Counted from the stretch's first letter, positions 32,183-58,260 are shown. The stretch is 64,000 bases of DNA from Candidatus Eiseniibacteriota bacterium (GCA_965223205.1 CBDCWB010000021.1:377-64376), one strand, 5' to 3'. Numbers and translations: made by a program. The notes: generated from the sequence alone by a model not told the origin.

Positions 32183-32492
32183 CTACTCCTCTCCCTCCCA
32201 CGCATGGAACTTGCCGAAGGCACCCTCTTCACCAGGCTGTAGCTTCCCAGCGATCTCGAGGAGATAGTCGTCAATGCCAAACCTGTGGGGCTTGCCCCTT
32301 TGCCGTCTCGGCCTGTGCAGCGTCTTGAGCCCTCTTCCTGGTTGGATGCTTGACGGTCGGTGAGACAGGCTTGCCACTCCCACCTATCTTTTGGCCGGGC
32401 TTGACCTTGCCTCCCCCCTTTGCTGCATCAGCGCCCTCGTGGGTATCTCCCTCGGGCGCCGCAGCGTCACCGCCGCTCTCCAGCAAGCTTAG
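32183..32492 (-). pseudogene. Rhs linker plus toxin remnant, cut by IS1380
   Basis: SLLESGGDAAAPEGDTHEGADAAKGG...GSGKP...KHPTRKRA, with a frame break near 32270-32300. Confidence 0.75.
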
Positions 32493-32955
32493 CCCAGATC
32501 CACGGGTAACGGCATGACTCACGCGGTGCCGGTCAATATATAGGCACGAAAAAGTGCTCCAGTCCTGGTAAAAAGGAGGTAGTAACAACCCTTCTCGCCA
32601 AAGCCAGGAGCACTTGTAAGGTGAAACTCCCGCATCAGCTTCGAAGAGTCAAGTACTTTGCAGCCCCCGACTCGGTCACATCGTTCGCCGGCCTTAAGCT
32701 CATCACCGACCTCGCTCACAAGCTGGGAATCATCCGTGGGCTCGACACGCTGGCAGTCAAGAAGCGCCGCCGCGGGATACCCGTTGCGGACTTTGTCATG
32801 AGCCTGGTCCACAACTTTGTCGTCGGTGGACAACACCTGACCGACTTGCAGGTCCTGCGAGACGAGAAGGCGACGCGCGAGCATCTCTACGAGCTCGAGG
32901 TCCCGGCCCCGACCACCGCAGGAGAGACGCTGCGCAAGTTCACGATCGGCCACAT
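32493..32955 (+). mobile_element. IS1380-family 5' fragment, interrupted by IS21
   Basis: Near-identical inverted copy of ~19985-20447. Confidence 0.88.
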
Positions 32956-34650
32956 TGCGTATTCCACGGCAAGCCGGACAGTGATTCCAGACGAAGCCGG
33001 ACACTGATTCCATGGCATGGCGGACAGCGATTCCACGCGAAGGCGGACACCGATTCCACGGCAAGCCGGACACCCTAGTTCGGCGTAAGTGACCGAGTCG
33101 CCGCAGGATAACCCGCTGATACCCTGCCTGGCTCCATTGGAGCGAAAGGAGGCCAGGGTGCCGGCAGTGAGGTTGTCCATGCGGAAAGTCAGAGAGGTGT
33201 TGCGGTTGTCGTGGGAGCGCAAGCTCTCAGCGCGTCAGGTGGCCAGGAGCGCTGGCCTAGGCCGCTCGACGGTCTCGGATTACCTGAGGCGCGCCAAGGT
33301 GGCGGGGTTGAGCTGGCCTTTGCCAGAGGGACTCGACGACGCCTCGCTCGAGCAGCAGTTGTTTCCTCCCCCCTGCCGCGCCGACTCGGTCAGTCGCCCA
33401 ACTCCCGACTGGGCCACAATCCACCAGGAGCTCAAGCACAAAGGCGTCACGCTGGGGTTGCTGTGGGAGGAGTACAAGGCCACTTGCCCCGAAGAAGGCT
33501 TCCAGTACAGCTGGTTTTGCAGGAGCTACCGGGACTGGGCAGGGCTGTTGGATCTCAGCATGCGCCAACACCACAGGGCCGGCGAGAAGCTGTTCGTTGA
33601 CTACGCCGGGCAGACCGCCGGGATCGTCAACCCCGCAACGGGGGAAGTGCTCGATGCTCAGATCTTCGTGGCGGTGCTCGGTGCCTCAAGCTACACCTAC
33701 GCCGAGGCTACCTGGACGCAATCGCTCCCCGATTGGATCAGCTCGCACATCCGCGCCCTGGAGTTCTTTGGCGGCGCCACCGAGATCCTGGTGCCCGACA
33801 ATCTGAAGTCGGCGGTGATCAAACCCCACCTCTATGAGCCCGAGCTCAACCCCACCTACCAGGAGATGGCATCGCACTACGGCACTGCGATAATCCCAGC
33901 TCGAGTGCGCCGCGCAAAAGACAAAGCCAAAGCGGAGGCCGGCGTGCAACTGGTCGAGCGTTGGATCCTGGCGTGCCTGAGGAAGCAGACCTTCTTTTCT
34001 CTCCCGGAGCTCAACAAAGCGATCGCCAAGCTCCTCGAGCGACTCAACAGCAAACCCTTCCAGAAAATGCCGGGCTCGCGCCGGAGCCTGTTCGAATCGC
34101 TCGATCGCCCTGCGCTCCGCCAACTACCGGCCACACCCTACGAACTCGCTGAGTGGAAGAAGGTCGCCGTCTACCTCGACTACCACGTTGAGTTCGATCA
34201 CCACTACTACTCGGTGCCCTATCAACTCTACAAGCGCAAACGCAAGGTGGAGGTGCGCGCTACTGCCACGGTGATCGAGGTCTTCTACAAGGGCAAACGC
34301 GTCGCCTCCCACCGGAGGTCCTTCCAGCGTGGCAGGCACACCACGTTGCGCGAGCACATGCCACCCTCGCATCGCCTTTATGCCGACTGGACACCGGAGA
34401 GATTCGTTCGATGGGCCGGGAAGATCGGCCCCCAAACCACAGCGTTCATCGAGCACGTCCTCACCTCGCGCGCTCACCCTCAGCAGGGGTTTCGTTCGTG
34501 CCTGGGCATTCTCAAGCTGGCCAAGACCTACAGTGACGAGCGTTTAGAAGCAGCCTGCGGTCGCGCCACTCAAATCGGCGCTAGTTCCTACAAGAGCGTC
34601 GCGTCGATTCTCAAAAGAGGCCTCGACTCACAGCCGCTGGGTGAGCCGTC
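32956..34650 (+). mobile_element. istA: IS21/IS408-like left end plus istA, 3'-truncated
   Basis: TGCGTATTCC plus five ~22 bp ATTCCA..CGGACA repeats; LFVDYAG, VPDNLKS, KDKAKAE, HYYSVPY. Confidence 0.9.
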
Positions 34651-34977
34651 GACCACCCCGATCCGTATAGGTGAGCGTCGTTTGTGGATTGCCAAGGCCC
34701 CCTTGATCCGCGAAAAGGAGTTCTTTGAGGCGGTCGTCATCGAAATAGTCAAGCTCGAGAATCTGGTCGAGGTCTAACCCTTGCTCACCGCCTGGACCAC
34801 GCCCCTGTTGCGGGCAAGATCCAGCCCGCTACCCACAAATTCTCCTGAAGACCCGGCTCTATACTACTTCAAACAACTTGATCATCAGAATCCCGGGGCT
34901 GAGCGTGTTCATGCTGATGCGAGATGATAGGAGTGCAACGTAACACCGTAAAGCTCGAAACGCAAATTCGAACCTCT

Positions 34978-35406
34978 TTACATGGCAGCAAAAATCGAGT
35001 TGGGATCCCCGATCTTGCGCAGCGCGATTCGTTCACACAACGCGACCAAGTGGCATCCATAGGAAGGGACTATCTCCACCAACCTGAAATCCTCCCGCAC
35101 CACTCGATCGACGACGCCATCTATCACCCGATTGGCAGGACGATCGTAAAGATCCGCAACATACTCACGGGGAATTTGAATTCCAACACGAATCGTCAAA
35201 TCCAGAATCAGATTTCCGGCCCGAAAGTCGCTCGCAAGTAGACGTTCCACCCCTTCGAGAGCAATCCTGTAGACATCTCCTGCTCCATCCGATAAGAAAA
35301 GCAAAACACCCTGGTCTCGCCATACGTGAATCCCAAGCACGCTCCCATCGTGGAAATTCGGGGTGTTCACGAGGCCAGCGTCGAAACCGAAGTGTGAACC
35401 AATCAT
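34978..35406 (-). CDS. Putative immunity protein (FHD motif, Imm50-like)
   Basis: ATGA overlap with the toxin stop; NFHDGSVLGIHV. Confidence 0.65.
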   Translation of the reverse strand: MIGSHFGFDAGLVNTPNFHDGSVLGIHVWRDQGVLLFLSDGAGDVYRIALEGVERLLASDFRAGNLILDLTIRVGIQIPREYVADLYDRPANRVIDGVVDRVVREDFRLVEIVPSYGCHLVALCERIALRKIGDPNSIFAAM

Positions 35407-35876
35407 TGAGGATCCCCCGGCTTAAGAGGTCGCCATGGGCCCCTGTCCTTGTTGGTTGGAGGAGTTCCATCCTCTGGACGCCCCCAATCATGCGCGTGGC
35501 CATCAGGAATGCCGTGGTGCGGAGGATCGACATCAACCTCTGGAAAGCCGTCATCGCCATATCGCCGCTGACCGGGCTTTCCATCGGGTCGGGTCGCACT
35601 CGATGTTGATCCCGGCTCTCCCCGAAGAGGGTTCGACTTGCTTCCCCCCTTTGCTGCAAGGAGGGAGCCGGACGCGAGTTGGTCGTACGTCGGCTCGCAT
35701 CCCAGGTGCAGTTCGAGGGTTAGCGAGCGCTCGACCCCGACGCTGGCCTGGTCGGCGAGGTCGAAAGCCCAGACGCGAGTTTCGGCACCCACGGCCGTGC
35801 TCGCCGACGCGATCCCCGGGACGAGCAGGCTCGCCAGGAGGCAGAGGATCGCGAGGAGGGGCCAGCGGCTTCGCAT
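35403..35876 (-). CDS. Mini-carrier polymorphic toxin 1 (signal peptide, conserved leader, His/Asp-rich toxin)
   Basis: MRSRWPLLAILCLLASLLVPGIASA-ST...SGSLLAAKGG, then QRRYGDDGFPEVDVD..HHG...HAHDW. Confidence 0.75.
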   Translation of the reverse strand: MRSRWPLLAILCLLASLLVPGIASASTAVGAETRVWAFDLADQASVGVERSLTLELHLGCEPTYDQLASGSLLAAKGGSKSNPLRGEPGSTSSATRPDGKPGQRRYGDDGFPEVDVDPPHHGIPDGHAHDWGRPEDGTPPTNKDRGPWRPLKPGDPQ

Positions 35877-36111
35877 GGCCCCAGTCTCTCTCATCGACGC
35901 GCCGGCGCCAAGCTCGTGGCTCCCCGGAGGGTGGTGGCCCGCGGTCTCCGTGCTCGCGCTGCGGCCGCCTGCGGTGGCCTCCGCTTGCTGCGCGCGGAGC
36001 TACCGGTCACCACGCACGGCACGAGGACGGCTAAGCCCGGCTTGCGTCACCGCTGATCGCCGCGCCATGAGCCGACAGGACGGCACGCGGGAAGCAGGGT
36101 GGCCCGATCAA

Positions 36112-36399
36112 TCAGTAGACGGCCTTCTCCCCGATGTTCCGGAGAATGGCCGAGAGCCACACGAGCGCGTATCCGATCGGTGGACTCTCCTCCTTCAGAA
36201 TGTCGCTCAGCTCATCCCAATCGTCGCTCAGCTGGCCCATCGTTAACGCCTTCGGATCCTTGTAGGGATCGTAGACCTCATCCTTCTCAATCGACCAGTA
36301 GTAGTCCTCCGAGATCTCGAAGTCGCTCCGCCCCGTCTCCTCAAGATACGTGAAGAGTCGGTCCGCAATGGCCCTCAGCTCTGCGACCTTCACGTTCAC
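36112..36399 (-). CDS. Putative immunity protein
   Basis: Start overlaps the toxin stop; acidic; EDYYWSI...GQLSDDWDEL. Confidence 0.7.
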   Translation of the reverse strand: MNVKVAELRAIADRLFTYLEETGRSDFEISEDYYWSIEKDEVYDPYKDPKALTMGQLSDDWDELSDILKEESPPIGYALVWLSAILRNIGEKAVY

Positions 36400-36845
36400 T
36401 ATCCGCCTCCACCCTGGTTGATCTGATTGCGGAAGTTCCCGATCTGTCTCTCCAGCTTCTGAATGCGGCTCTCAATGATCTTCTGCCTACGTTCTGGACT
36501 CGCGCCCTTGAGAAACCCCTTGTTGTCAAACTTGTCTGGGTTGGCCTTGTAGTCCTCTAGCTTCTTCAAATGCTTGTCGAGCTGCTTCTGAAGCCCCTTC
36601 GTCGCCTTCGCTCCCCCCTTTGCGGCAAGGGGGGAGCCGGACGCAAAGTTGTACTCCTCAAGCTCGTAGCTCGGGTGCAGTTCGAGGGTTAGAGCGTGCT
36701 GACCCGCGACGTGGACATGGTCCTGGAGCCCGAAAGCCCAGACGCGGTTTTCGCCGCTACTGACCGCACTCGCCGACGCAATCCCCAGCACGAGTAAGCT
36801 CGCCAGGGCGCACAGGATTGAGAGAAGGGGCCCGCGGCTTGGCAT
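36399..36845 (-). CDS. Mini-carrier polymorphic toxin 2 (basic all-helical toxin)
   Basis: MPSRGPLLSILCALASLLVLGIASA...SGSPLAAKGG, then HLKKLEDYKANPDKFDNKGFL...RIQKLERQI. Confidence 0.75.
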   Translation of the reverse strand: MPSRGPLLSILCALASLLVLGIASASAVSSGENRVWAFGLQDHVHVAGQHALTLELHPSYELEEYNFASGSPLAAKGGAKATKGLQKQLDKHLKKLEDYKANPDKFDNKGFLKGASPERRQKIIESRIQKLERQIGNFRNQINQGGGG

Positions 36846-36849
36846 GCTC

Positions 36850-37194
36850 TTATTCATCGACCGGAACGCGCCTGGTGACGAGCGTCTCACACTTCAAAGA
36901 AAGCACTCCGTTCTCAAGATCCTCGAGACCAAACCGAACTCGGTCGTGCTGAAGATCACTGACATCTCTGGCGCGCAAGCACAGTAGCTGCGAGATCCCA
37001 CCTCCTAGCGACTGCACGTTCCACTCGGAGACCCCGCCGGCCTCGGCTAGTATTCGAGCTGCGGGAAATCGATCGTCATCGACCAACTCGAGGACGAGCG
37101 AACACCGCCCCGTCGGTAGTTCCGTCGTGAACTCAATTCGCCTGACGATCGTCGCGATGGCAAGGTCTGCGTTGATTGAAGTGGATGTGCTCAT
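36850..37194 (-). CDS. Putative immunity protein (beta-rich)
   Basis: ATGA overlap with the toxin stop at 37191. Confidence 0.65.
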   Translation of the reverse strand: MSTSTSINADLAIATIVRRIEFTTELPTGRCSLVLELVDDDRFPAARILAEAGGVSEWNVQSLGGGISQLLCLRARDVSDLQHDRVRFGLEDLENGVLSLKCETLVTRRVPVDE

Positions 37195-38530
37195 TGCCCA
37201 CCCCCGGTACCCGGCCCGGCCCCTGGATGATAGGTTTCCTTGCCCTTGGGTCCGTAGCCAGGGCCAAACTCCCTTGTGTGGTGGTGAGGGTTCGTGTGGG
37301 TCGATGGGTCTGGCAGGTCGGTGAAGTCCGTTCTCTCCACCTGTCGTCCGTAGTCGTCGTACTGCGCCCGCCACGGCTGAACCTGTCCTACATCGTCCAC
37401 GTACTGGCCGTCAAGCTGTCGTACTCCTGGAGTCACTTGATCAGGTGCCTTCGCGCCGAGCCCACGTCCCCCCCTTGCTACATCAGCACCTTCGTGCGTA
37501 TCCCCCTCCGGGGTTGCAGCGTCACCATCGCTCTCCAGCAAGCTTAGCCCAGATCCACGGGTAAGATCATTGATCAGCTCCCCAGCTTGCGGTAACACGA
37601 TCGCCGTCGCGAGCGCAGCGGCGCCGGCAAGAACGACCGGGTGAAGGGTGGCCAGGAAGAGGACCAAGCAGCGGCGCAGCAAGGGCGAGGGACTCGCCCG
37701 TTGGGTCACTCCAATCGAGAGGGTTGTTGCGAGCGTACGCGTACGGATGAAGTTGCAGCGGATCCGCGAGCAGCTTCTCCTCCGGTGCCATCAGTAGGAT
37801 AGGATCCAAGCCACCAAAGCGTCCGTACCTGGCGATGTTGAAACGAGCGCCTTGACGCGTGAACCCGCCAAGCTCCTGCTCGCCCTTGTGATGCCGAAAC
37901 GGCTGATCGTACCCACTCGACTCGAATCGGCGCGGCTCCCCGAACGGAAAGTAGTCAATCCGCTGCATCACGCTGCCGTCAGCATTGGTTACCGCACGGA
38001 CGCTCCCCTGCTCATCGACGTGACAATGTTGGATTAAGCCCCCATCGTCCACCGTGCCGAACAACCGACCATACGCGTACAGATACCGCTGCTTCTCAGT
38101 ACCGTCGTTTTCGAAGAGACCAAGGAGCTTCCCACCCCGGCGCAGCGCGATCGTTGCATCGATCACATCATCCACGGCGCTGTTCGTTCGCAGCTCCAAG
38201 CACGGTTCGCCCTCACCGTCCAGAAAGCTCTCTTTCGCAATCAAGTTGTCGCTCGTGGCCAGCGACTGACGCACCACGCGATTGTCATGCGAGTACCAGA
38301 AGTAGTGTGACCGGATGCCACGCGATCCTACATGCTCGTTGATCGCGATCACATTGCCGTTGCCGTCGTGAGCAAACCCGACCGAAGCCTCCGACGCCAA
38401 GTGATCCACCTTCGTCAACCGACTCGTCCCGGCCTCATGCAGGTAGCTGAAGTGATTCCCGTAGGGGCGCTCCACGCCGATACGAGTTCCCGTGTCATCG
38501 TACTCGAACGTCATGCTCGCGTCTGCATCA
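37191..38530 (-). pseudogene. Orphan Rhs core plus toxin (Ntox24-like), frameshift near 37650
   Basis: NNPLDWSDPTGE; CT QYDDYGRQVERTDF...HTNPHHH. Confidence 0.8.
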
Positions 38531-38641
38531 AATCCAGAGGATTGTTGCGCGCATACGCGTAAGGATGGAGCCGCAGCGGATCCGCGAGCAGTTTCTTCTC
38601 CGGACTGCAACGAGATCACATCCTGGGACTGCAACGCAACA

Positions 38642-38932
38642 TCAGTCCCGCTCCTGAGGCAGATCATCCCCCAGATCCCAGCCGAACTCGTCTCTGAAGT
38701 CGACAAAGCACTCGGCACAGACCCAATGATAGCCGTCTTCGGTCGAGTACCCGCTCTTGCGATCGCCCTCCTGGCATGAGAACTTTGCTCCGCAGAACTC
38801 GCAGTGATCGTGTTCCCATCCTGGCCGATACGGACGATAGGCTCGTGAAACCAGCTTGACGCCGCTCAGATACCGTTCCTGCCCTTGGCGGCGCCAGTCA
38901 TCCGGTGCCGGCCTCTTCACCTGGCCAGTCAC
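38642..38932 (-). CDS. Putative zinc-binding immunity protein
   Basis: GTGA overlap with the Rhs stop; WEHDHCEFC...WVCAECF. Confidence 0.7.
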   Translation of the reverse strand: MTGQVKRPAPDDWRRQGQERYLSGVKLVSRAYRPYRPGWEHDHCEFCGAKFSCQEGDRKSGYSTEDGYHWVCAECFVDFRDEFGWDLGDDLPQERD

Positions 38933-41900
38933 TTCGGCACCTGACTTCCGTCCGGGAAGATGCGGAACCAATTGCCCGACGGGTCTCGATAGTCCCAGTG
39001 TGGCCCAATCGAGCCTGGGTGATCCAGGTCGGGGCGCAGCGACTCGCCAGTCTTCGGATTGTACCAGTTGCCCTCCTTCGATCCTGGTGTCGACCCCGGC
39101 TTTCCGCGCCATTCGAATCCCTTGGGTGCCTCGGCCGAATTCGTCCCGGGGAACGTCTTCCCTCCTTCCTTTGCTGCATCAGCACCCTTGTGCGCATCCC
39201 CCTCCGGCGTCGCATCACCGCCGCTCTCCAGCAAGCTTAGCATCAAATCACTGATCAACTCCCTAGCTTGAGGCGACACCGTTGCTGCCGCGAGCACGGC
39301 ACCTCCCAACACCGCGGCGGCCGTAAGACCAGCTGGGTTGGCCAGGAAGGGACCAAGCAATGGCGCAACAGCGGCGGCGGGGAACTCCCCGGTCGGATCC
39401 ATCCAATCCAAAGGATTGTTGCGCGCGTAAGCGTACGGATGAAGCCGGAGCGGATCCGCAAGCAGTTTCTTCTCCGGCGCCTCCAGCAGGATCGGATCCA
39501 ATGCTCCAAAGCGCCCGTACCTGGCCATGTTGAAACGAGCACCTTGGCGGGTGAAGCCACCAAGCTCCTGCTCGCCCTTATGGTGACGAAACGGTTGATC
39601 GTAACGGTTGGACTCCAGTCGCCTAGGCTCACCAAACGGGAAGTAGTCAATCCGCTGCATCAGGCTGCCGTCTGCATTGGTTACCGCGCGGACGCTTCCC
39701 TCTCCATCGACGTGGCAGTGCTGGATCAAGCCCCCATCGTCAACCGTGCCGAACAACCGACCATCCGCGTACAGATACCGCTGCTTCTCAGTACCGTCGC
39801 CCTCGAAGAGACCGAGGAGCTTCCCGCCTCGGCGCAGCGCGATCGTTGCATCGACCACATCATCCACGGCGCTGTTCGTTCGCAGCTCCAAGCACGGCTC
39901 GCCCTCACCGTCCAGAAAGCTCTCTTTCGCAATCAAGTTGTCGCTCGTGGCCAGCGACTGACGCACCACGCGGTTGTCGTGCGAGTACCAGAAATAGTGC
40001 GACCGGATGCCACGCGACCCAACGTGCTCGTTGATCGCGATCACGTTGCCGTTGCCATCGTGAGCAAACTCGACCGAAGCCTCCGACGCCAAGTGATCCA
40101 CCTTCGTCAACCGACTCGTCCCGGCCTCATGCAGGTAGCTGAAGTGATTCCCGTAGGGGCGCTCCACGCCGGTACGAGTTCCCGTGTCATCGTACTCGAA
40201 CGCCATGCTGGCGTCTGCATCGAACACCACGCTCTTCAGACGACCCAGTGCGTCCGGGAAATATGTGGTGGTGGCGAGGTTGTCGGTCGTCCGCTGGTGC
40301 ATCGACGCATTCGGATAGTAGGAGAAGCTCTCTGAGAATACCGCGGCGCCGTCGCTGTCAACCTGATGGGTCGCCACCCGACCCCGATCCGTATAGGTGA
40401 GCGTCGTCTGTGGATTGCCAAGGCCCCCTTGATCCGCGAAAAGGAGTTCTTTCAGGCGATCGTCATCGAAGTAGTCAAGCTCGAGAATCTGGTCGAGGTC
40501 CAGTCCTTCTTGGCGAAACACCTTGGAAGCGCGGCCTCGATCGTCGTAGCGGTATTCAAGCGCCAAGCTGCTGCCCGGGTACTCAAGCTCAATCGTCTCG
40601 TCAAGCCAATCTTGCTCAACGTCTACGTCTTGCACGAGATAGTTCGATCCCGCGCCGACACCCTTCCACGTCGCGGTCTTCTCGAAAGTCACGTGCCCGG
40701 ACGTGTCGTACCAAAAGTCCCTAATGAAGTGCGGGCTTCCCGCCCCGCGGGCCTTGCGACTAACCTGAGCAAGGCGACCCTCCGTGTTCGTGCCAACGCC
40801 CGTGTCATAACTGTACGACACGATCGGATCATGATTCAGGGGCGCCTCCGGGTAGCTTGCATCCTCCGGCTGCAGCTGGGCTTGTGTCACACCCGACAAC
40901 ACGCCCCGCTCAACCTCCCGGCCCTGCTCATCGTACTTGTAGTACGTCCACTCGTTCACCGCGGCACTTTGCCGTCTATCCTGGGAGAATCTGAGCTTCC
41001 CCGACAAGTCATAGACGTAGACGATGTCCCATCCAGACCCCAGGCTTGATTGCGTTTGATAGATGACCGATGTCGTTGCCCCATTGGCAGCGCACGAGAC
41101 CGTCGTCAAGACCTCGTGCGCAACCCCGGGCGTCGTCCGCACCATCCCGCCGTGCGAACCTTTGTGATTGAGTCGAACGAGCTCCGCGCCCCCAATTTCG
41201 CGAATGACAAATGTCGGGGTACCGCATGATCCATCCGTAAACTCGAGTGTCGCACTGTATTGTATCGCCTTCATTGATGGCGTGAAGACGGAAGCTTGCG
41301 TCCCCACTCCAGGTTCGTGGCGGATCTCGTGGTGCTCGGAATGCTTGCCTCCCAAGTCGGGAAGATCGAGGCGCAAGAGCCTACCTGCCATGTCGTACTC
41401 GTAGACCGAATCGCGGCCTTCGGCGTCTCTAATGCGAATCAGGTTTCCTCGGTCGTCGTACCTGTAGTAGGTAACCGCTTTCGATCCGTCGTCCTTCACG
41501 TATGCTACGGCGCGGAGCTGTCCAAGAGCGTCGTACTTACGTATCGCCTGATGGCCGAAAGGGTCCGTGGTTGTCTCCGCCTTGAAGTAGCTTGCTCCTT
41601 GAAGGTCACTCGACCAGGGATACGAGAAGCCGTCGCCTGATAAGGACGTGGCGAAATCGCGCGTTACATACTCGATACGCAAGTCAGGGTGTGTGGTCGC
41701 CTCCAAGCGACCGAGCTTGTCATAACGATATTGCGTTACGCGACCTTCCTCATCGGTGCTCTGCCATACCTGATCTAGGATGTTGAATTCAACTTCCTTC
41801 AACGCACCATTTCGTTCCGTCTGAAAGATGCGGTCGATTCCGTCGACGTGATGAGTTGTCTCTTGCTGCGGTTGTTCGGGTCCTACACCCGGGGTGGCGA

Positions 41901-44094: not shown

Positions 44095-44378
44095 TTATCG
44101 AGTTTGTCACCCGATGCGGCAATTTAGTGTTGTATGCGCGTCTTGCGAGCGCTACCGTTCGAGTGTGGCTCCGGGTTGGTGCCGCTCCCGTGTCGCCGGG
44201 AAGAAGAGAGCAGGGTCGCGATGGCCGTAGTGCCGTTTGTGTCGTCCCACATTCCGCAAAATGCGTCACCTGACGGTGATGACCGTGCGGCTGCGCTCAT
44301 CGCGTCGTCCGAATCGTTAGCGCATCCTAGTTTGGCGCCAGCCTGCCCAACGGTTACCCGCTGTTTACCTACGGACAG

Positions 44379-45606: not shown

Positions 45607-45642
45607 CTCGCTCAACGAGGCACAAGTGTCTCGTTGAGCGAG
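45607..45642. terminator. Strong hairpin between convergent genes
   Basis: CTCGCTCAACGAG-GCACAAGTGT-CTCGTTGAGCGAG inverted repeat; no U-tract. Confidence 0.45.
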
Positions 45643-46263
45643 GGCTCCTTCCTTGCCTTGCGCTTTTTTGCAGCGCGCTCCTCAGCCTCCTTGAGTCGGT
45701 AGCTGTCGCCGTCGATGTCGATGATCTCGGCAGTGTGGAGCAGGCGATCGACGAGTGTGACGACACAAGCAGCGTTGGGAAAGTTTCCCCCCCAGGCAGT
45801 GAAGGCCTTGTTGGTGGTGACGACGGTGGAGCGCTCCTGGTAGCGTCGGGTCACGACTTCGAAGAACAGGTCGGCATGGCGTGTGTCGTACGAAAGATAC
45901 CCGACTTCGTCGACGACCAGCAGGGCCGGGTTGGTGTAGCGGCGCAGCCTGCGAGTGAACGACGCTTCGGTGTGCTGCACGGCAAGGTCGTTCAACATGT
46001 CGCTGGCGGTGGTGAAACGTACGGTGTGTCCGCGCATGAGCCCCTGATAGGCAAGGTTCTTGGCGATCATCGACTTGCCGATGCCGTTGGGACCGATGAA
46101 GACGACATTGGCAGCCTCCCTGAGAAAGGCGAAGTCGAAGAGCTCTTCGATCGATGGGCGATGAATCTTCTTCGGCCAGCTCCAGTCAAAGTCGGCCATC
46201 GGCTTCATGGCGCCGATGCGGGCGTTGCGGATACGGCGGTCGAGACTTCGCCTTAGCTTAGCT

Positions 46264-47919: not shown

Positions 47920-47937
47920 GCTTAGCTTAGCTTAGCT

Positions 47938-49593
47938 TAGTTCGCATCCGGAAATTCGATTTGGCGCATAAGGATGCGAAAAACAGTGAATCGGAGTCGG
48001 CATTTGTTCATACTGCCAGGTGTTAGAAACCAAAGCCTGGATAGGCTTAACGGCAGAAACGAACAAAGGAGCCGACCCCGATGAGGACAATGATCAGGCA
48101 ACAGCAGGTGTTCATGCAAGCGTTCATTGACCACGAGCATGCTCGCGAGCTCGCCGAGATGAGCGACGCCCTGGACCGTTGTTCGGCGGCGCTGAGCCGG
48201 GTGACGAAGGACATTGCCCGAGGACGCAGTGTGAATCGAGGGCGACCTGGGATGACGGCTGAGCAGGTGGTGCGAGCGCTTGTCGTGAAACAGATGAACG
48301 ACTTCAGCTATGACGAGCTGGCCTTCCACTTGTCCGATTCCACCTGTTATCGCGTATTTTGTCGGATCGGCGATTTCGAGAAGGCGCCGAGCAAGTCGAC
48401 GCTTCAGGAGAACATCAAGCGAGTGTCGGCAAGGGCGCTGGAGGCGATTCATCGAGCCCTGCTTGGTGTTGCACAAGAAGAAGAGATCGAAAGTGGTCAG
48501 ACTGTGCGCGGTGACTGCACGACGGTGGAAACGAACATCCACCCGCCGACGGACTCCTGGCTGCTTTGGGATACGGTTCGAGTCCTGGTTCGACTGCTGA
48601 AGCGCAGTCGCAAGTTTGGAGTCGACTTCAGCAATCACCAACGGCTTGCAAAGCGTCGGTTTCGGCAGATCGGCAACATGAGAGATCGAGAGGAGCGCGC
48701 CCGGCTGTATAGGGAGCTACTGGAGGGAACGGAAAAGACGCTTGGGGACGCGCAGAACGCGATTGAAGAACTGCAGTCTTGGGACGATGGAGAAGCGCAG
48801 ATCTTGGTCGCTCGATTGAAGCATCACGTCACTTTGGGTCGCCGGGTGATCGAGCAAACACGTCGGAGAGTACTGCAGGGCGAAACCGTTCCGTCAACGG
48901 AGAAGGTGGTGTCGATCTTCGAAGACCACACCGACATCCTGGCGAAGGGGAAGCCTAGGCCCGAGTACGGTCACAAGATCTGCTTGACGACTGGCCCGGC
49001 ATCGATGGTGCTGGACTGTGTGGTGTTGCGCGGCAACCCGGCAGACAAGACGCTGGCGACACAGATGATCGAGCGTCACCGCGACATCTTTGGCGCCGTC
49101 CCTGAACAAGTGGCGTTCGATGGAGGGTTCGCATCGAAAGCGAACGTCAACGAGATCAAGAGGATGGGAGTGGATGATGTTGCTTTCAGCAAACGATGTG
49201 GACTTTCGATCAGCGAGATGGTGACAGACAGCTGGGTCTACAGGCGATTGCGGAACTTCCGCGCTGGCATCGAAGGATGCATCTCATTCTTCAAACGCTG
49301 CTTTGGCTTGAGGCGCTGTTCGTGGAAAGGTTGGCGATCGTTCGAAGCCTACGTGTGGGCTTCGATTCTGTCGGCAAACTTGCTGACATTGGCGCGGCAT
49401 CGTCTGACCGCATGAGCGTAAGTTCGCGGTAACACATCTTAAGTTGAGTTGGTCAGCGATTGGTCCTGCCCTGACAGCGCCGCAAGTGACCCGGCACGGG
49501 CACTTCGCCCTGGCTCAAGACACGGAGAGACGACCGGTAGAGCCCGTTCCGCGCCATTCGGGTGCTGAAACGGACTTTTCCGGATGCAAACTA
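47938..49593 (+). mobile_element. ISNCY-like insertion sequence, copy 2 (transposase 48081-49415)
   Basis: Identical protein to copy 1; offset 1674 bp. Confidence 0.88.
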
Positions 49594-49739
49594 GCTTAGC
49601 TTAGCTTGCTTAGCTTAGGCGTTCGGTCTCTTCGAGTTCGAGCAGGCGCTCGATGAACGGCTCATCCTGGACCTCGTCCCAGTGAGCAAGAAGGCCCCAG
49701 AGGCCGAGCTTGCGCGCGCGTTCGCGGTTACGTTCAGGG

Positions 49740-51246
49740 TCAATCGGGGTCTTCGGCATCATCTTCCTCCTTAAAGAGTCGGTCGTAGTCGGTGAGTGAG
49801 TGCGGGCGAACGATGAGGTCTCGAAAACGCGGATCGTCGGGCACGCGCACGGGGACTGGCGGTGGTTTGCCGGCAGCGAAACGGGTTTTGATCAAGGACC
49901 TGGCGCACGGCCCCGAGATGCGGCGCGTCGCGCTCGAGAGCTTCAGCGATTGCCTGCTCGAGTTCATGAGGACCGTAGCGGTCAAGGAGCGTAAGAAGCC
50001 GTGAGGTGACGCTGCCTAGGTTGGCGCCGCGCAAGGCGAGCTGCTCGAACAATCGGCTGGAGAAGGGGGCGGCATGCGCCAGGCGATCGATGCCACGGTG
50101 CTTGCGAGCCTGTCGTTTCTGAGCGACGAGTGCTTCGAGATGACGCGGATCTTCGATCTGGCGCCCCTTGTCCCAGCAACGGTCGTGTTCGGCCACCAGC
50201 TGGTTCTGGTTGAGAATGCGCACGGTGTCGAGCGAAGCGACGACCAGAAGCGTCCGCCGTACGTGTGTATGCGGCACCGAGTAGTCGTTGCGATCGAAGC
50301 GGACGTAGGGAGACTTCGGCACCTTGACCGGTACGCGTTCGTCGCAGGGGAAGCGGTCTGGCGGTAGCTCGAGGAGCTTCGTCCGTTCCTCCTCGAACAC
50401 ATCGTGGACCGTCCGGTCACGATCCTCGGGACAACGCCGCTGGCCAGCTGTCGAGCGACACCAGTCGAGGGCCTGGCAGTTGAGATCATCGAGATCGTGG
50501 AAGGAGCGAGCAGCGAAGAAGCTCGAACGCACAAAGCGGATGGCGCGCTCGACCCGTCCCTTCTCGTTGCCGCGAGCGACGGCTACGGGGCGCGGCTCGA
50601 AGCGGTGGTGTGCAGCAAGCTCGAGAAGGGTCGGGTGGAAGCGGATCGCATCCCGCCGGCGTTCGAGCACCGCGCTCTTCAGGTTGTCGTACTTTAGCGT
50701 GCGAGGCACGCCACCGAAGAATTCGAAGGCTTCGACGTGACCGCGTAGAAAGTAGGGCATTGCGCTGCCGAGGTAGTAGCGCAGGAAGATATGGCGCGAG
50801 TAGCTCAGCACGCAGACGAAGCCGACCAGCCGTCGCTCGGCGCTGCCGATCGTGAGCGTGCCGAAATGTCCCCAGTCGACCTGCGCTTCCTCACCGGGCA
50901 GGGTGAGTAGCCTGAGAAAAGCCTCGGCCGGCCGACGTGGACGATAGCGCGCGACGACGGTGCGGAAGTGATCAGGACCACCTGCGTAGCCGCGCTCCTT
51001 CACCATCGCGTACAGCCGGCTGGCGCATAGTCGAGGATACTTCTCCAGCGTCTCAACTATGAAGGGGATGAACGGATCGGCAAGCGTCGGCCGAGAGGCC
51101 CGCTTCCCTTCCGGCAGCCCGGCCTGAGCAAGAACCCGCTTGACCGTCGAGTGATGCACGCCGAGCTGACGGGCGATCGTGCCGACCCGCCACTTCTCGG
51201 CATGATAGAGCCGGAGGATCTCGGCTTCGAGAGCGGGCGAGATCAT
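49740..51246 (-). pseudogene. istA: IS21 IstA with a frameshift near the 3' end
   Basis: Homolog of 17335-18825; the C-terminus continues in the 49740-49985 frame. Confidence 0.85.
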
Positions 51247-52729: not shown

Positions 52730-53128
52730 CTACATGTTGCCGCCGCCATCTTCACGACCCGCTCCGTACACAGAGAACTCCAAGCTAACGCCCGCTTCTG
52801 CAAGCCTTTGAACCAACTCAGGATCTGCGTGCAGAGAAAACACCTGACACCCAGCAAGATCCTCTGGCTCGACGGCAACGTCAACGCACACGTCTATGCC
52901 AACCTCGTGTGCCTCTGCAATGGCTGCGCAGCCAGCATGGACGAATCGGAGAATCGCGGTTCGATGATCCCCCCAACCACCGGCCTCGGACAGCTCGGAT
53001 GCAAACCCATCGCCAGCACGTCGAAGGCCACGGTAAGCTCCAGGAATCAGGAGATTCAACTGGGCGCCTATGCGTTCATGGTCTTCATGTCCCGCCGATG
53101 TGGACGTGAAGCGGATGATTGTGAACAT
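52730..53128 (-). CDS. Putative immunity protein (DUF4279-like C-terminus)
   Basis: TGATG coupling to the toxin; LVQRLAEAGVSLEFSVY. Confidence 0.65.
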   Translation of the reverse strand: MFTIIRFTSTSAGHEDHERIGAQLNLLIPGAYRGLRRAGDGFASELSEAGGWGDHRTAILRFVHAGCAAIAEAHEVGIDVCVDVAVEPEDLAGCQVFSLHADPELVQRLAEAGVSLEFSVYGAGREDGGGNM

Positions 53129-54860
53129 CACCCGCCTCCAAGCTGTCGCCACTCTTCAAAGGCGTCGAGGATCTGCTCGCCAGGAATGTCTGGGTTGTTT
53201 CGGCCTCCGTCCGGCACCTTCTGGTCCGGCTTGTACTCTCGGTGGAACCACCGGCGAAACTCCTTGTTTCGCCGCAGGGCCTCCTTAGCCTCCTTTACCC
53301 GATGCTCCAGCTGCTTCGCAGCCTTCTTCTTCCCCTTTGCGGAATCCGCTTCTTTGTTCCCATCCTCTTCCGTGCTCGCAGCGTCACCGCCGCTCTCCAG
53401 CAAGCTTAGCATCAGATCATTGATCAGCTCCCCAGCTTGCGGTAACACGATCGCCGTCGCGAGCGCAGCGGCGCCGGCAAGAACGACCGGGTTGGCCAGG
53501 AGAGGACCAAGCAGCGGCGCAGCAAGGGCGAGGGACTCGCCCGTTGGGTCACTCCAATCGAGAGGGTTGTTGCGAGCGTACGCGTACGGATGAAGTTGCA
53601 GCGGATCCGCGAGCAGCTTCTCCTCCGGTGCCATCAGTAGGATAGGATCCAAGCCACCAAAGCGTCCGTACCTGGCGATGTTGAAACGAGCGCCTTGACG
53701 CGTGAACCCGCCAAGCTCCTGCTCGCCCTTGTGATGCCGAAACGGCTGATCGTACCCACTCGACTCGAATCGGCGCGGCTCCCCGAACGGAAAGTAGTCA
53801 ATCCGCTGCATCACGCTGCCGTCAGCATTGGTTACCGCACGGACGCTCCCCTGCTCATCGACGTGACAATGTTGGATTAAGCCCCCATCGTCCACCGTGC
53901 CGAACAACCGACCATACGCGTACAGATACCGCTGCTTCTCAGTACCGTCGTTTTCGAAGAGACCAAGGAGCTTCCCACCCCGGCGCAGCGCGATCGTTGC
54001 ATCGATCACATCATCCACGGCGCTGTTCGTTCGCAGCTCCAAGCACGGTTCGCCCTCACCGTCCAGAAAGCTCTCTTTCGCAATCAAGTTGTCGCTCGTG
54101 GCCAGCGACTGACGCACCACGCGATTGTCATGCGAGTACCAGAAGTAGTGTGACCGGATGCCACGCGATCCTACATGCTCGTTGATCGCGATCACGTTGC
54201 CGTTGCCATCGTGAGCAAACTCGACCGAAGCCTCCGACGCCAAGTGATCCACCTTCGTCAACCGACTCGTCCCGGCCTCATGCAGGTAGCTGAAGTGATT
54301 CCCGTAGGGGCGCTCCACGCCGGTCCGAGTTCCCGTGTCATCGTACTCGAACGTCATGCTCGCGTCTGCATCAAACACCACGCTCTTCAGACGACCCAAC
54401 CCGTCCGTCCGGAAAATATGTGGTGGTGGCGAGGTTGTCGGTCGTCCGCTGGTGCATCGACGCATTCGGATAGTAGGAGAAGCTCTCTGAGAATACCGCG
54501 GTGCCGTCGCTGTCCACCTGATGGGTCGCCACGCGACCCCGATCCCTTCTTGGCGAAACACCTTGGAAACGCGCCCGCGATCGTCGTAGCGGTACTCAAG
54601 CGCCAAGCTGCTGCCCGGGTATTCAAGCTCAACCGCCTCGTCGAGCCAATCTTTCCCAACGTCTACGTCTTGCACGAGATAGTTCGACCCCGCACCTACC
54701 CCCTTCCACGTCGCGGCCTTCTCGAAAGTCACGTGCCCGGACGTGTCATACAAAAAGTCTCTGCGGGCTTCCCGCCAAGCGAGCCCGGCGACTAACCTGA
54801 GCAAGGCGACCCTCCATGTTCGTGCCAACGCCCGTGTCATAGCTGTACCAACCCGGCGGA
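53128..54860 (-). pseudogene. Orphan Rhs core plus helical toxin
   Basis: NNPLDWSDPTGE; CT EFRRWFHREYK...ILDAFEEWRQLG; upstream part carries deletions. Confidence 0.82.
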
Positions 54861-54864
54861 CGAC

Positions 54865-55180: not shown

Positions 55181-55199
55181 CCGCCGCCGCCCTCGGTGT

Positions 55200-55748
55200 C
55201 TACGGAGGCTCTGCCCTTTCATACCGCGCAGACACCCCCAGGAGACGAATCCTGTCAGCATCACTCCACGAATCGTCAGCGGCGAATTCGTCAAAGTCAG
55301 AGCGTGCCTCAGGGACTCTCTTCCCCGTGGCTAGCTCCACGAAGGTTCTCGGGCCGGCCACCAAGAAGTAGTCGTCCGTCGTACACACCACGGCAAATGA
55401 GTAGTCTTCTGGAACAAGGGCGAAGTTGAAGTGTGCGCACTCCCGACTAAACAAAAGTAGGCCTACTTCTGTGACGTCAACTTCCAGAGCGTCTCTTACG
55501 TGCCGCAAGTCTTCGAGCGACACAGCTCTCAGTTTTGTTGCGCCAAAAGCAGTGGCAGCACTCGCGAGGCGCTCGGCATCCTGGTCGTCGAAGTGCTGTC
55601 CAGACTCCACGGGCACGACTAACCAACCTTGTTCCTTCAGAAAAGCTCGAGTGAACTGATGGCTACTTTCGAGGGCTTTCCCAGCCCACTCCTCCCAAGC
55701 TGCAGCCTTCGTCCCGTTCGATGCGCACCGTAAGCGTCTAGTTTCCAT
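55200..55748 (-). CDS. Putative immunity protein
   Basis: ATG overlaps the toxin end; GWLVVPVES...DYFLVAGPRTFVE. Confidence 0.65.
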   Translation of the reverse strand: METRRLRCASNGTKAAAWEEWAGKALESSHQFTRAFLKEQGWLVVPVESGQHFDDQDAERLASAATAFGATKLRAVSLEDLRHVRDALEVDVTEVGLLLFSRECAHFNFALVPEDYSFAVVCTTDDYFLVAGPRTFVELATGKRVPEARSDFDEFAADDSWSDADRIRLLGVSARYERAEPP

Positions 55749-56247
55749 ATCGAACCTTGATCGGCTTTTCCGAAGGCGGGTTGATCTGGATAGTTGGCGA
55801 CCCTTGGGTACTCCCCGGTCGGACGCTGATAGTCGAACCATCTGGGAGTGTCCCGGATCTGACTCCGCCGCCGTGATTCTTCACAGCCCCTCCGCCAACA
55901 AGGCTATCGAAGTCCTTGTTCGCCTGGTCAAGGCCTCCGCTCTTGTCGAACTGGCGCGTCTTTCCTGCCTTGCCCTTAGAGGCGCCCTTCAAGAGGTCAT
56001 CAACCGAGCCACCTGTTCTCCTTGCGGCAAGGGGGGAGCCCGACACGGAATCGTACTCCGCAAGCTCGTAGCTCGGGTGCAGTTTGAGGGGTAGAGCGCG
56101 CTGACCCGCGACGTGGGCCTGGTCGGCCAGGTCGAAAGCCCAGACGCGGTTTTGAGCACCGGTGGAGGAATCCGTCGACGGGATTCCCGGCACGAGCAAG
56201 CTCGCCAGGACGCACAGCAGCACGAGGATAGGCCGACGGCTTCCCAT
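55738..56247 (-). CDS. Mini-carrier polymorphic toxin 3 (BECR-fold RNase-like toxin)
   Basis: MGSRRPILVLLCVLASLLVPGI...SGSPLAARR; CT QFDKSGG..QA.KDFDSL...GTLPDGSTISVRPGS..GSPTIQI...IKVRY recalls the CdiA-CT NC101-type tRNase (from memory). Confidence 0.75.
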   Translation of the reverse strand: MGSRRPILVLLCVLASLLVPGIPSTDSSTGAQNRVWAFDLADQAHVAGQRALPLKLHPSYELAEYDSVSGSPLAARRTGGSVDDLLKGASKGKAGKTRQFDKSGGLDQANKDFDSLVGGGAVKNHGGGVRSGTLPDGSTISVRPGSTQGSPTIQINPPSEKPIKVRYGN

Positions 56248-56251
56248 CAGA

Positions 56252-56485
56252 TCACCCTTCCGGGATCACGAAGGTCTCGAAGCAATAAGGGCAGAGCCAT
56301 CCGCCCTCGGAACGGTAGCACTCGTCGTTTCCTGACAGAGTGACGTTGCACACCATGCAGTGCCCATGGTCGGCAACCTTCTCCCAACGACCGTTCTCCC
56401 AGACGTACGTCCGTGCCTCGGAGACGTTTTCCTGAAAGAACGATCGCTCGACCCGCGCTCCGTTCACCATCACCCATTCCGTCAT
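56252..56485 (-). CDS. Putative zinc-binding immunity protein
   Basis: DHGHCMVC...WLCPYCF; directly follows the toxin. Confidence 0.7.
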   Translation of the reverse strand: MTEWVMVNGARVERSFFQENVSEARTYVWENGRWEKVADHGHCMVCNVTLSGNDECYRSEGGWLCPYCFETFVIPEG

Positions 56486-56487
56486 GC

Positions 56488-58260
56488 TCAGCTTCCTCCT
56501 CCAAGCGGAACCTTCCGATCTGGTACTGGGCCTCGCGTTCGAATGTCAACGTGCGGTGGTCCGTGCGCAGGGTCGGTATGAACGTTGTACGAACGACCAG
56601 TCTTGGGGTTGTAGAAGGTGTCCGCGCCCGGACGTGAACTACGAGGTGGCCCAAACTTGTTGCCCAACGCCTCACCGGCCTCCTTGGCCGTCTTGTCACC
56701 AAAGAACTTCCCTGGAGTAGTGAGCCCTTTGCCTCCCCCCTTTGCGGCATCAGCACCTTCGTGCGTATCCCCCTCCGGGGTTGCAGCGTCACCATCGCTC
56801 TCTAGCAAGCTTAGCATCAGATCATTGATCAGCTCCCCAGCTTGCGGTAACACGATCGCCGTCGCGAGCGCAGCGGCGCCGGCAAGAACGACCGGGTTGG
56901 CCAGGAGAGGACCAAGCAGCGGCGCAGCAAGGGCGAGGGACTCGCCCGTTGGGTCACTCCAATCGAGAGGATTGTTGCGCGCGTAAGCGTAAGGATGAAG
57001 CCGGAGAGGATCCGCAAGCAGTTTCCTCTCCGGCGCCCTCCGCAGGATCGGATCCAAAGCACCAAAGCGCCCGTACCTAGCAATGTTGAAACGAGCACCC
57101 TGGCGGGTGAACCCGCCAAGCTCCCGCTCGCCCTTGTGATGCCGAAACGGCTGATCGTGCCCACTCGACTCGAGTCGGCGCGGCTCCCCGAACGGAAAGT
57201 AGTCAATCCGCTGCATCACGCTGCCGTCAGCATTGGTTACCGCACGGACGCTCCCCTGCTCATCGACGTGACAATGTTGGATTAAGCCCCCATCGTCCAC
57301 CGTGCCGAACAACCTCCCATCCGCGTACAAATACCGCTGCTTCCCGGTACCGTCATTTTCGAAGAGACCGAGGAGCTTCCCGCCCCGACGCAGCGCGATC
57401 GTTGCATCAGCCACGTCATCCACTGCGGTGTTCGTCCGCAGCTCGAGGCACGGTTCGCCATCCCCGTCCAAAAAGCTCTTCTTCGATATCAAATTGTCGC
57501 TCGTGGCCAGCGACTGACGCACCACGCGATTGTCATGCGAGTACCAGAAGTAGTGTGACCGGATGCCACGAGACCCAACGTGCTCGTTGATCGCGATCAC
57601 ATTGCCGTTGCCATCGTGAGCAATCTCGACCGAAGCCTCCGACGCCAAGTGATCCACCTTCGTCGCCCGACTCGTCACGGCTTCATGCAGGTAGCTGGAG
57701 TGATTCCCGTAGGGACGCTCCACGCCGGTACGAGTTCCCGTGTCATCGTACTCGAACGTCATGCTCGCGTCTGCATCAAACACCACGCTCTTCAGACAAC
57801 CCAACCCGTCCGGGAAATATGTGGTGGTGGCGAGGTTGTCGGTCGTCCGCTGGTGCATCGACGCATGCGGTGCCGTCGCTGCCCACCTGATGGGTCGCCA
57901 CGCGACCCCGATCCGTATAGGTGAGCGTCGTTTGTGGATTGCCAAGGCCCCCTTGATCCGCGAAGAGGAGTTCTTTCAGACGATCGTCATCGAAGTAGTC
58001 AAGCTCGAGAATCTGGTCGAGATCCAGCCCTTCTTGGCGAAACACCTTGGAAGCGCGCCCGCGATCATCGTAGCGGTATTCAAGCGCCAAGCTGCTGCCC
58101 GGGTACTCAAGCTCAATCGTCTCGTCAAGCCAATCTTGCTCAACGTCTACGTCTTGCACAAGATAGTTCGATCCCGCACCCACTCCCCTCCACGTCGCGG
58201 TCTTCTCGAAAGTCACGTGCCCGGACGTATCATACCAAAAGTCCCCAATGAAGTGCGGGC
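56488..58260 (-). pseudogene. Orphan Rhs core plus toxin (YNPKTGRS / PHVD type)
   Basis: NNPLDWSDPTGE, GADAAKGG; upstream deletion/frameshift; cut at 58260 by a transposon. Confidence 0.83.

Follow-up and report, generated by a model that had tools for sequence, protein, structure and literature searches.

The DNA analysed here, 64,000 nt from a Candidatus Eiseniibacteriota bacterium (GCA_965223205.1 CBDCWB010000021.1:377-64376) and referred to below as the window, holds an array of polymorphic toxin modules with two kinds of front end, or chassis. One consists of Rhs proteins and 3' fragments of their genes, and the other of very short genes, called mini-carriers here. Both front ends finish with the same 15 bases, after which come a small toxin and, in most modules, a translationally coupled candidate immunity gene. 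The 15-base motif encodes Ala-Ala-Lys/Arg-Gly-Gly, with the consensus GCC GCA ARG GGG GGA, and this junction is the subject of the analysis.

Rhs and mini-carrier modules of the window

A tblastn search with the long Rhs reading frame (38932-44094; the gene as called is given in Table 1) showed that the window contains one long Rhs gene and about 10 Rhs 3' fragments, all on the same strand and several of them frameshifted. The fragments are interrupted by IS21-type insertion sequence (IS) elements, two identical tandem copies of a DDE transposase, and an rve/AAA pair. The YD repeats of the long gene matched PF05593 (E 3.8e-22) and TIGR01643 (E 3e-13), and its core (residues 1484-1569) scored 37.3 bits with TIGR03696, above the cut-off of 32.5. 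The core ends in NNPLDWMDPTGE, which fits the pattern PxxxxDPxGL and carries the DPxG self-cleavage motif. No signal peptide or N-terminal trafficking domain was recognised at the 5' end of the gene. This end (43893-44400) adjoins an opposite-strand beta-helix open reading frame (ORF) and IS elements, and because it abuts them the gene may be 5'-truncated. Family scans of the window turned up no PAAR, VgrG or type VI secretion system family.

The Rhs copies remain alike for approximately 75 residues past DPxG, through a hydrophobic stretch and then LLESGGDATPEGDxHxGAD, and diverge at the motif. The junction is therefore distinct from the classical Rhs core/toxin boundary, as the variable part does not begin directly after DPxG. 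Across the linkers of the window and of the related loci described below, the motif lies 70-150 amino acids (aa) after DPxG, and about 75 aa after it in the type of the long gene. Two of the fragments (junctions 62694 and 29248; junctions are named by their first base on the minus strand) have other linkers between DPxG and the motif. Only seven proteins with the linker type of the long gene were found, of which two or three were the window's own ORFs and three more were attributed to the same contig, and this ruled out the linker as a widespread module. When 16 C-terminal regions were scanned, none of the Pfam pre-toxin families (PT-VENN of CdiA, PT-HINT and PT-TG) gave a match, even with E allowed up to 1.

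A mini-carrier, of which the window has four, is a complete small gene that encodes, in order, a putative Sec-type signal peptide, approximately 50 residues of conserved sequence, the motif, and a toxin of 70-95 aa. The signal, which was read from the sequence, is predicted from a basic n-region (MRNRWP), a hydrophobic core (ILALLCVLASLLVPG) and an ASA end. The part of about 50 residues reads NRVWAFDL...LTLELH...ASGS[LP]L and runs directly into the motif. Secretion and delivery of the toxin are presumed for both chassis. A double-glycine leader peptide was considered and ruled out, as the leader is predicted to start with a Sec-type signal and the two ABC transporters of the window (2033-5718) show no peptidase domain.

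Translation of the minus strand placed AAKGG in frame at 62694, 56748, 36626, 35657, 32426 and 29248. Two versions of the motif occur as exact pairs on the minus strand, GCAGCAAAGGGGGGA at 32412-32426 and 35643-35657 and GCCGCAAAGGGGGGAG at 36611-36626 and 56733-56748, each joining one Rhs-type sequence and one mini-carrier, and none of 100 shuffles gave a match to either. All four of these copies had been reported in an initial annotation of the window, as had variants near 25250, 29235, 37470, 39165, 53335 and 62685, and every one of them was recovered, the variants in frame. Two further variants on mini-carriers, AARRT and AANGA, were missing from that annotation (Table 1). Its statement that the sequences upstream of the motif are unrelated was confirmed by a DNA identity of about 0.33 between the two chassis, which is the random level. 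The downstream toxins also differ as claimed: there were no close copies among the 12 compared, three (39177, 56748 and 62694) were distantly related at 32-40% identity, and the others had no significant match among one another.

Behind seven of the 12 toxins there is, within -25 to +12 nt, an ORF encoding 77-182 aa. When the starts of eight immunity-like ORFs were examined (the seven coupled ORFs and one 88 nt downstream), five or six were preceded by a GGAGG-like run. Several toxins end in runs of glycine (QGGGG, LGGGS, GTGGGQ and QLGGG, at 36399-36440, 56488-56520, 37191-37230 and 53128-53160 on the minus strand), and in at least two cases the codons of this tail double as the GGAGG-like ribosome-binding site from which the overlapping immunity gene would be translated. 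No clear immunity ORF was found downstream of the long Rhs gene. Apart from Imm32, the coupled ORFs had no family match, nor did the toxins other than those of the Ntox37 type, and no Rfam family was matched in the window.

Table 1. Positions of the Rhs-type modules, mini-carriers, junctions and immunity-like ORFs in the window
Feature	Position	Strand	Description
Rhs 3' fragment	62437-63999	minus	open at window end; different linker type; distant Ntox37-like toxin
Rhs 3' fragment	56488-58261	minus	one frameshift; 81-aa toxin
Rhs 3' fragment	53128-54847	minus	junction SAKGK
Long Rhs gene	38929-43893	minus	YD repeats, core ending NNPLDWMDPTGE, ~75-aa hydrophobic-then-acidic linker, AAKEG, Ntox37 toxin
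Rhs 3' fragment	37191-38606	minus	junction VARGG
Rhs linker remnant	32271-32492	minus	~25 aa, severed by IS21-type element 33089-34777; 46-aa tail after AAKGG
Rhs 3' fragment	28970-31059	minus	frameshifts; third linker type
Rhs 3' fragment	27643-28167	minus	without motif; similarity stops after LLESG
Rhs 3' fragment	25048-26865	minus	96% identical to long gene up to junction AAKKT
Frameshifted mini-carrier	61510-61850	minus	AANGA
Mini-carrier	55738-56247	minus	AARRT; starts 4 nt after preceding immunity gene
Mini-carrier	36399-36857	minus	AAKGG; toxin in no Pfam family
Mini-carrier	35403-35876	minus	AAKGG
Junction AAKGG	62680-62694	minus	GCC GCT AAG GGG GGA; one synonymous difference
Junction AANGA	61600-61614	minus	frameshifted mini-carrier
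Junction AAKGG	56734-56748	minus	GCC GCA AAG GGG GGA; Rhs 3' fragment
Junction AARRT	56014-56028	minus	mini-carrier
Junction SAKGK	53329-53343	minus	in frame
Junction AAKEG	39163-39177	minus	GCA GCA AAG GAA GGA; long Rhs gene
Junction VARGG	37467-37481	minus	GTA GCA AGG GGG GGA
Junction AAKGG	36612-36626	minus	mini-carrier
Junction AAKGG	35643-35657	minus	GCA GCA AAG GGG GGA; mini-carrier
Junction AAKGG	32412-32426	minus	Rhs linker remnant
Junction AAKGG	29234-29248	minus	GCC GCA AAA GGC GGA; two synonymous differences (AAA, GGC)
Junction AAKKT	25243-25257	minus	GCC GCA AAG AAA ACA
Imm32-family immunity gene	62155-62424	minus	12 nt after 62694 toxin
Immunity candidate, 77 aa, Cys-rich	56252-56485	minus	2 nt after toxin stop; preceded by GGAGGAGGA; in cassette common to L003
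Immunity candidate, 182 aa	55200-55748	minus	overlaps stop of mini-carrier 55738-56247
Immunity candidate, 140 aa	52730-53152	minus	follows Rhs fragment 53128-54847
Immunity candidate, 114 aa	36850-37194	minus	follows Rhs fragment 37191-38606
Immunity candidate, 95 aa	36112-36399	minus	overlaps toxin stop; toxin GGGG tail supplies GGTGGAGGCGGA before GTG start
Immunity candidate, 142 aa	34978-35406	minus	overlaps toxin stop of mini-carrier 35403-35876

The junction and its cassettes in related loci

A scan of species-representative genomes returned 14 related loci (designated L001, L002 and so on), mostly from metagenome-assembled genomes of Planctomycetota. Two of these, L007 (Phycisphaeraceae, 67.7% G+C) and L010 (66.1% G+C), were long, and both come from Planctomycetota. 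Several short contigs among the loci were binned as Acidobacteria or Gemmatimonadales, which may reflect mis-binning or transfer. In eight of the 14 loci (L003, L004, L006, L007, L008, L010, L012 and L013) a junction module other than a mini-carrier preceded the first mini-carrier, and in those with sufficient sequence further upstream (L003, L004, L007 and L010) this module consisted of an Rhs core, DPxG and a linker of 70-150 aa. The same order was found at all three mini-carrier clusters of the window, and in the remaining six loci the first visible junction was that of a mini-carrier. Because Rhs-type modules precede the mini-carriers, the latter are part of Rhs arrays, sitting head to tail behind Rhs modules where upstream sequence is visible, and do not form an independent system. 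At L004 701-736 the motif is repeated in the same frame at a distance of 21 nt (AAKGG-TR-AARGG), which may be the scar of an unequal exchange.

In two cases the same toxin cassette was found behind both chassis. The toxin and 77-aa ORF that follow Rhs junction 56748 in the window (56749-56245) were 85.8% identical over 505 nt to a sequence that follows a mini-carrier in L003 (1187-1692). Over the 150 nt upstream the two were about 0.33 identical; from the first base of the motif onward identity was 0.90, and the match stopped at the start codon of the next mini-carrier. In the second case, a mini-carrier module (L002 1275) was compared with an Rhs-type module (L006 182), and identity rose from about 0.3 upstream to 1.0 at the first base of the motif. 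It stayed at about 0.9 for some 600 nt, through the toxin and immunity gene, before dropping within the following leader to the 0.75-0.8 typical of the family. A model in which the downstream mini-carrier leader travels with the cassette, as in the insertion of a circle, was unsupported given this fall at the leader. In a third pair, from L006 and L008, the 15-mer was the only sequence in common. At the other side of the motif, most alignments of window and locus mini-carrier leaders ended at 35643-35645, 36611-36614 and 56020-22, the 3' edge of the motif.

At the protein level, too, toxins were found on both chassis. The Ntox37 toxin of the long Rhs gene was found on a mini-carrier (P0018) with 74% identity from the motif onward, and the toxin of mini-carrier 36626 was found on Rhs C-terminal ends or fragments (P0020 and P0206). 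One toxin family occurred on mini-carriers, on Rhs proteins with many different linkers, and on HINT-type proteins. The initial annotation had proposed a common crossover site through which two delivery chassis draw on one pool of cassettes, and had suggested a search of relatives for the same toxin on either chassis. That search was successful (L003, L006, P0018, P0020 and P0206), and the proposal is directly supported by the two cassettes whose identity jumps at the motif. The toxins common to both chassis had dS (synonymous divergence) of 0.38-0.46 and dN (nonsynonymous divergence) of 0.015-0.03, with the motif identical in both pairs, values that point to strong purifying selection and suggest that these are not very recent copies.

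The junction was also examined at the DNA level. The window and the 14 loci together comprise 139.8 kb, in which the 15-mer was located with up to one mismatch. All 27 occurrences were in frame, on the coding strand and at toxin junctions; a DNA element independent of reading frame was ruled out, as all 27 copies have the same frame and strand. The codons used are uncommon ones, each with a usage of 3-24%. In 17 genes of the window, GCA makes up 0.13 of the Ala codons, GGG 0.21 and GGA 0.17 of the Gly codons, and AGG 0.10 of the Arg codons, in agreement with the earlier remark that GGG-GGA looked unusual. In the loci richer in G+C (L007/L010) the values were 0.14 for GCA, 0.14 for GGA and 0.03 for AGG. 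Given AAKGG, the probability of GCM GCA AAG GGG GGA is approximately 0.002 from window codon use.

Eleven unrelated upstream contexts were each counted once. Seven are linkers from the loci and three are Rhs linkers from the window, and the eleventh is the leader of the mini-carriers. In binomial tests, which assume that the contexts are independent, the second Ala was GCA in 10 of the 11 contexts (p 6e-8, background 0.15), the first Gly was GGG in 10 of 11 (p 6e-6), the second Gly was GGA in eight of the nine contexts that keep Gly (p 3e-5), and Arg was AGG in seven of eight (p 7e-6), the eighth being AGA and none CGN. The alternative named in the initial annotation, that the motif is no more conserved than its amino acids require, is argued against by codon choice in these 11 contexts. 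GCA as the first codon of the motif was seen three times in the window, at junctions 39177, 35657 and 32426, which between them cover both chassis, versus none of 21 locus junctions, and such a lineage-specific codon on both chassis is as expected for exchange inside one genome.

The mini-carriers were used to define a protein family. A mini-carrier query found 27 proteins, in whose alignment a conserved leader ending in AA[KR]GG was followed by unrelated C-terminal parts, and an exhaustive search with a profile of only the leader gave 250 cluster representatives at E<=1e-3, 116 at E<=1e-10 and 42 at E<=1e-30. Nearly all members were 110-200 aa in length, with the leader at residues 1-78. Pentapeptides were counted in the 102 of 168 proteins that matched the pattern, the other 66 being truncated or divergent, with LAARGG visible by eye in several: AARGG was found in 27, AAKGG in 20, AARGA in 10, AAGGG in four, AAEAG in four, and AAKGA in three, in addition to rarer forms. 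Nine Pfam families, mostly named toxins or nucleases, were found on 10 of the 106 members scanned (LHH twice, TNT, Ntox33, Colicin_E5, DUF2380, Ntox24, Tox-REase-7, Ntox37 and DUF4258). The other 96 matched none, which means that approximately nine in ten toxin domains of the family match no known family. The mini-carriers define a sizeable, undescribed family of very small, presumed secreted polymorphic toxins, apparently centred on the Planctomycetota.

The leader and the linkers had no match in Pfam or NCBIfam, DUF1020 included, and no relative of solved structure was found for them (best E 0.077). Collections of plasmids and phages contained no relative of the mini-carriers. Over 91 pairs of leaders, median dS was 0.37, median dN 0.26 and median dN/dS 0.73, so that the leader evolves almost neutrally at the protein level, versus a dN/dS of about 0.05 for the toxins common to both chassis. 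Instead of a folded domain, the part of about 50 residues may be a pro-peptide under loose constraint. In two metagenomic proteins, P0119 (715 aa) and P0114 (539 aa), the leader precedes a short Rhs body, which is followed by a second motif-like junction before the toxin; the leader junction of P0119 is VARGA. These proteins suggest that the leader can carry cargo besides a small toxin. At L010 9689-10483 a leader stops after about 55 residues, lacks the motif, and continues in frame into a WapI-like immunity domain.

Possible roles of the junction

These observations make it reasonably probable that the motif is a recurrent crossover point of a modular toxin system. Toxin and immunity cassettes would have been exchanged repeatedly between front ends at the motif by two crossovers, one within an extended homologous stretch, either the Rhs core or the leader of the next mini-carrier, and the other in the 15 bases, acting as microhomology. 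For an exchange within one chassis, long homology would be at hand in the Rhs core or in the 230-nt leader. For an exchange between chassis, the motif would be the only shared sequence on the 5' side, and the leader of the next mini-carrier could be used on the 3' side. The route could be homology-facilitated illegitimate recombination or slippage between short direct repeats, both of which are known mechanisms, and the motif would then be kept because it is used for exchange.

Several points weigh against this reading. Fifteen bases are short for RecA-dependent exchange. Neither the window nor either long locus (L007 and L010) yielded a tyrosine or serine recombinase, the transposition genes of the window being IS transposases only (IS21 IstA/IstB, DDE and rve), and no recombinant was seen within a population. 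The contexts are taken as independent in the binomial tests above. Rhs module 27643 is a counter-example, as it diverges approximately 20 codons before the position of the motif and does not contain it. Junction 29248 keeps AAKGG with two synonymous changes and junction 62694 with one, as a constraint on the protein would give. Finally, of 34 longer proteins with a toxin of the 56748 type, six had a clear AA[KR]GG (all with at least 87% toxin identity) and three a degenerate form, and the remainder join Rhs linkers or HINT-type ends without the motif. The HINT-type sequences, with PF07591, which we take to be the pre-toxin HINT domain, end in ...VHN before the toxin. Because most of these proteins are without the motif, it is not needed for this toxin to move or work, and it is a property of this set of arrays, neither one of the toxin nor something generally required.

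A further point of the same kind is that the whole mini-carrier leader is conserved at synonymous sites, with the rare codon CTA in 18 of 18. Part of the DNA identity is therefore due to recent ancestry or gene conversion and not to a property of the motif. Among mini-carriers, codons deviated less often in the block around the junction (-6 to +4; 10 of 172) than elsewhere in the leader (43 of 235), with a Fisher p of 2e-4 for sequences that are not independent. Within one chassis the motif is thus only moderately special, and because the whole leader is conserved in this way, it is the comparison across chassis that carries the claim of conservation at the DNA level.

The motif could instead be kept for the protein, as a flexible hinge or as a cleavage site (after the basic residue and before Gly-Gly) that frees the toxin, with the identity of the DNA a by-product of recent spread. 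Such a role would account for the two junctions that keep AAKGG despite synonymous changes, and for the dominance of Lys and Arg at position 3, AA[KR]G[GA] making up 60 of the 102 pattern-matched members of the family. The residues after the motif are Gly/Lys-rich and linker-like, and a 2012 survey of polymorphic toxins raises, in its account of pre-toxin regions, the possibility that these are processing sites (PMC3482391). On its own, however, this explanation is unlikely. Glu and Gly also occur at position 3, and the four residues found there are those encoded by the four RRG codons, a pattern more easily explained by DNA than by a protease site. In 11 unrelated contexts the codons chosen differ widely from those that the genomes usually use, and the toxin family also works behind front ends that do not contain the motif. 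No protease gene was consistently nearby, a single Peptidase_S8 gene being found 2.3 kb away, in L007 only.

A signal in the RNA was also considered. The purine run (AAGGGGGG; AAGGAAGGAGG in the long Rhs gene) could act as a Shine-Dalgarno-like pause site that holds ribosomes back shortly before the toxin is made, for instance to give the signal peptide time to engage Sec at about codon 75, and that is masked in mini-carriers by an 11-bp hairpin with an anti-Shine-Dalgarno-like arm (CUCCCUCCUU). The hairpin pairs the purine run with the invariant upstream TCC C(T/C)C CTT, and this 5' arm resembles the anti-Shine-Dalgarno sequence. It was predicted at all four mini-carrier junctions folded (window 35631-35680 and 36600-36649 on the minus strand, L006 960-1009 and L010 8758-8807; -20.5 to -29.3 kcal/mol, z -1.2 to -3.2), versus none of four Rhs-type junctions. 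Its 5' arm was invariant in 18 of 18 mini-carriers, in which it uses the minority codons TCC and CTT, and the GGAGG-like runs before immunity starts indicate that the organism uses Shine-Dalgarno sequences. The stem never varies, however, so covariation cannot be scored, and the motif of the Rhs gene lies about 1640 codons from the start. No start codon follows the motif; internal translation initiation at the Shine-Dalgarno-like run was ruled out, with no ATG, GTG or TTG within reach at any junction. Because Rhs-type junctions are without the hairpin, it cannot explain conservation across chassis, and a pausing signal as the main role of the motif is improbable. In the mini-carriers the predicted hairpin may stall replication or translation. 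Neither a pausing role nor a hinge or cleavage role would exclude a crossover role for the motif, with which both are compatible.

It is equally doubtful that the 15-mer is the core site of an integron-like, in-frame cassette exchange at GCCGCAARGGGGGGA by a sequence-specific enzyme encoded elsewhere. Integrons hold promoter-proximal arrays of small cassettes bounded by short repeated attC sites, and here too a short repeated site bounds small cassettes and can fold as a hairpin in the mini-carriers. Unlike in integrons, no integrase was found nearby (window, L007 and L010), the site lies inside a reading frame, and no hairpin is found at Rhs-type junctions. If this reading were true, the site of the mini-carrier would be presented as a hairpin and the new cassette would go onto the Rhs gene, and the toxin that this displaces would remain behind, attached to an existing secretion leader, and so stay expressed. 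Chance, or common descent of the flanks only, is a very improbable source of the shared 15-mer: flanks are homologous and synonymous conservation is generally high within one chassis, but the shuffles gave no match, and the codons are identical even where both the upstream contexts and the downstream toxins are unrelated.

Related systems and other elements of the window

The arrangement has precedents. One is the Rhs main gene with its array of orphan rhs-CT/immunity modules, as outlined for Salmonella, for example (PMC3967940). The window resembles such arrays in its YD repeats, the core ending in DPxG, the variable C-terminal toxin and, behind most modules, a candidate immunity gene, and also in its string of 3' fragments, which keep core sequence and would be able to recombine with the main gene. 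Unlike in those arrays, the variable part here starts 70-150 aa past DPxG, at AA[KR]GG and after a linker that belongs to the chassis, and some of the downstream modules are complete genes with a predicted signal peptide of their own.

The MafB toxins of Neisseria appear to be the closest precedent for a short transition motif that is retained by cassettes. Their transition motifs are given as VSGDF, VKYDT and DWVKN, silent class 3 cassettes keep WDWVKN, and the motifs were proposed to allow recombination (PMC4287609). The two systems have in common a signal peptide (predicted here), a conserved N-terminal part, a variable C-terminal toxin, an immunity gene (a candidate here), arrays of alternative cassettes and a short transition motif. 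They differ in that no DUF1020 is present here and the leader is only about 50 aa, and in that the junction is common to unrelated chassis, Rhs being one of them, with the motif kept codon for codon across genomes of 60-68% G+C.

Pre-toxin elements ahead of swappable toxins, and toxin domains common to different secretion routes, are described in the survey cited above (PMC3482391). The motif is likewise a conserved element directly ahead of a swappable toxin, although it consists of five residues and is not a domain, matches no Pfam pre-toxin family, and is supported by evidence at the DNA level. The SitA lipoprotein toxins of myxobacteria are outlined as small and modular, an export signal at the N-terminus coming first, then a short conserved region and a polymorphic toxin (PMC5562445, PMC8546572), an order that is shared by the mini-carriers, in which the export signal is predicted. 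In contrast to SitA, the mini-carriers contain no lipobox, the Cys of the leader being preceded by Leu, and there is no evidence for outer-membrane exchange.

Among the matches listed in literature searches, titles and abstracts gave no description of this junction or of the mini-carrier family, and none of the listed full-text mentions of AAKGG or AARGG was on toxins. Rhs, CdiA and MafB proteins are known to exchange their toxin ends at conserved junctions; each chassis there has a junction of its own, and the DNA conserved at it is usually just the tail of an extended region of homology. What differs here is a single 15-base junction that is common, codon for codon, to unrelated front ends, with the breakpoints of apparent exchange at its edges. 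How toxin cassettes cross between delivery systems becomes a testable question.

Other elements were found in and around the array. A small pair at 31495-31885 (plus strand), beside the cassettes, consists of a DUF2281-type antitoxin and an ORF that by eye reads like a PemK/MazF-type toxin. It has 83-93% DNA identity to sequences beside mini-carrier cassettes in L001 (1035-1235 and 2805-3014) and L002 (2883-3145), and may stabilise the island. At 20865-22591 (plus strand) a gene for DarT, a single-stranded DNA thymidine ADP-ribosyltransferase, is followed by a macro-domain gene, forming a DarT/DarG-type pair, and a ParE-type toxin is encoded at 14393-14761. The istA (49771-51246) and istB (45612-46208) genes of an IS21-type element are split by two tandem DDE transposase elements of 1682 nt, which are identical and overlap by 8 nt (46252-47933 and 47926-49607). 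Further IS21-type genes were found at 15538-19589, 22592-23491 and 33089-34777.

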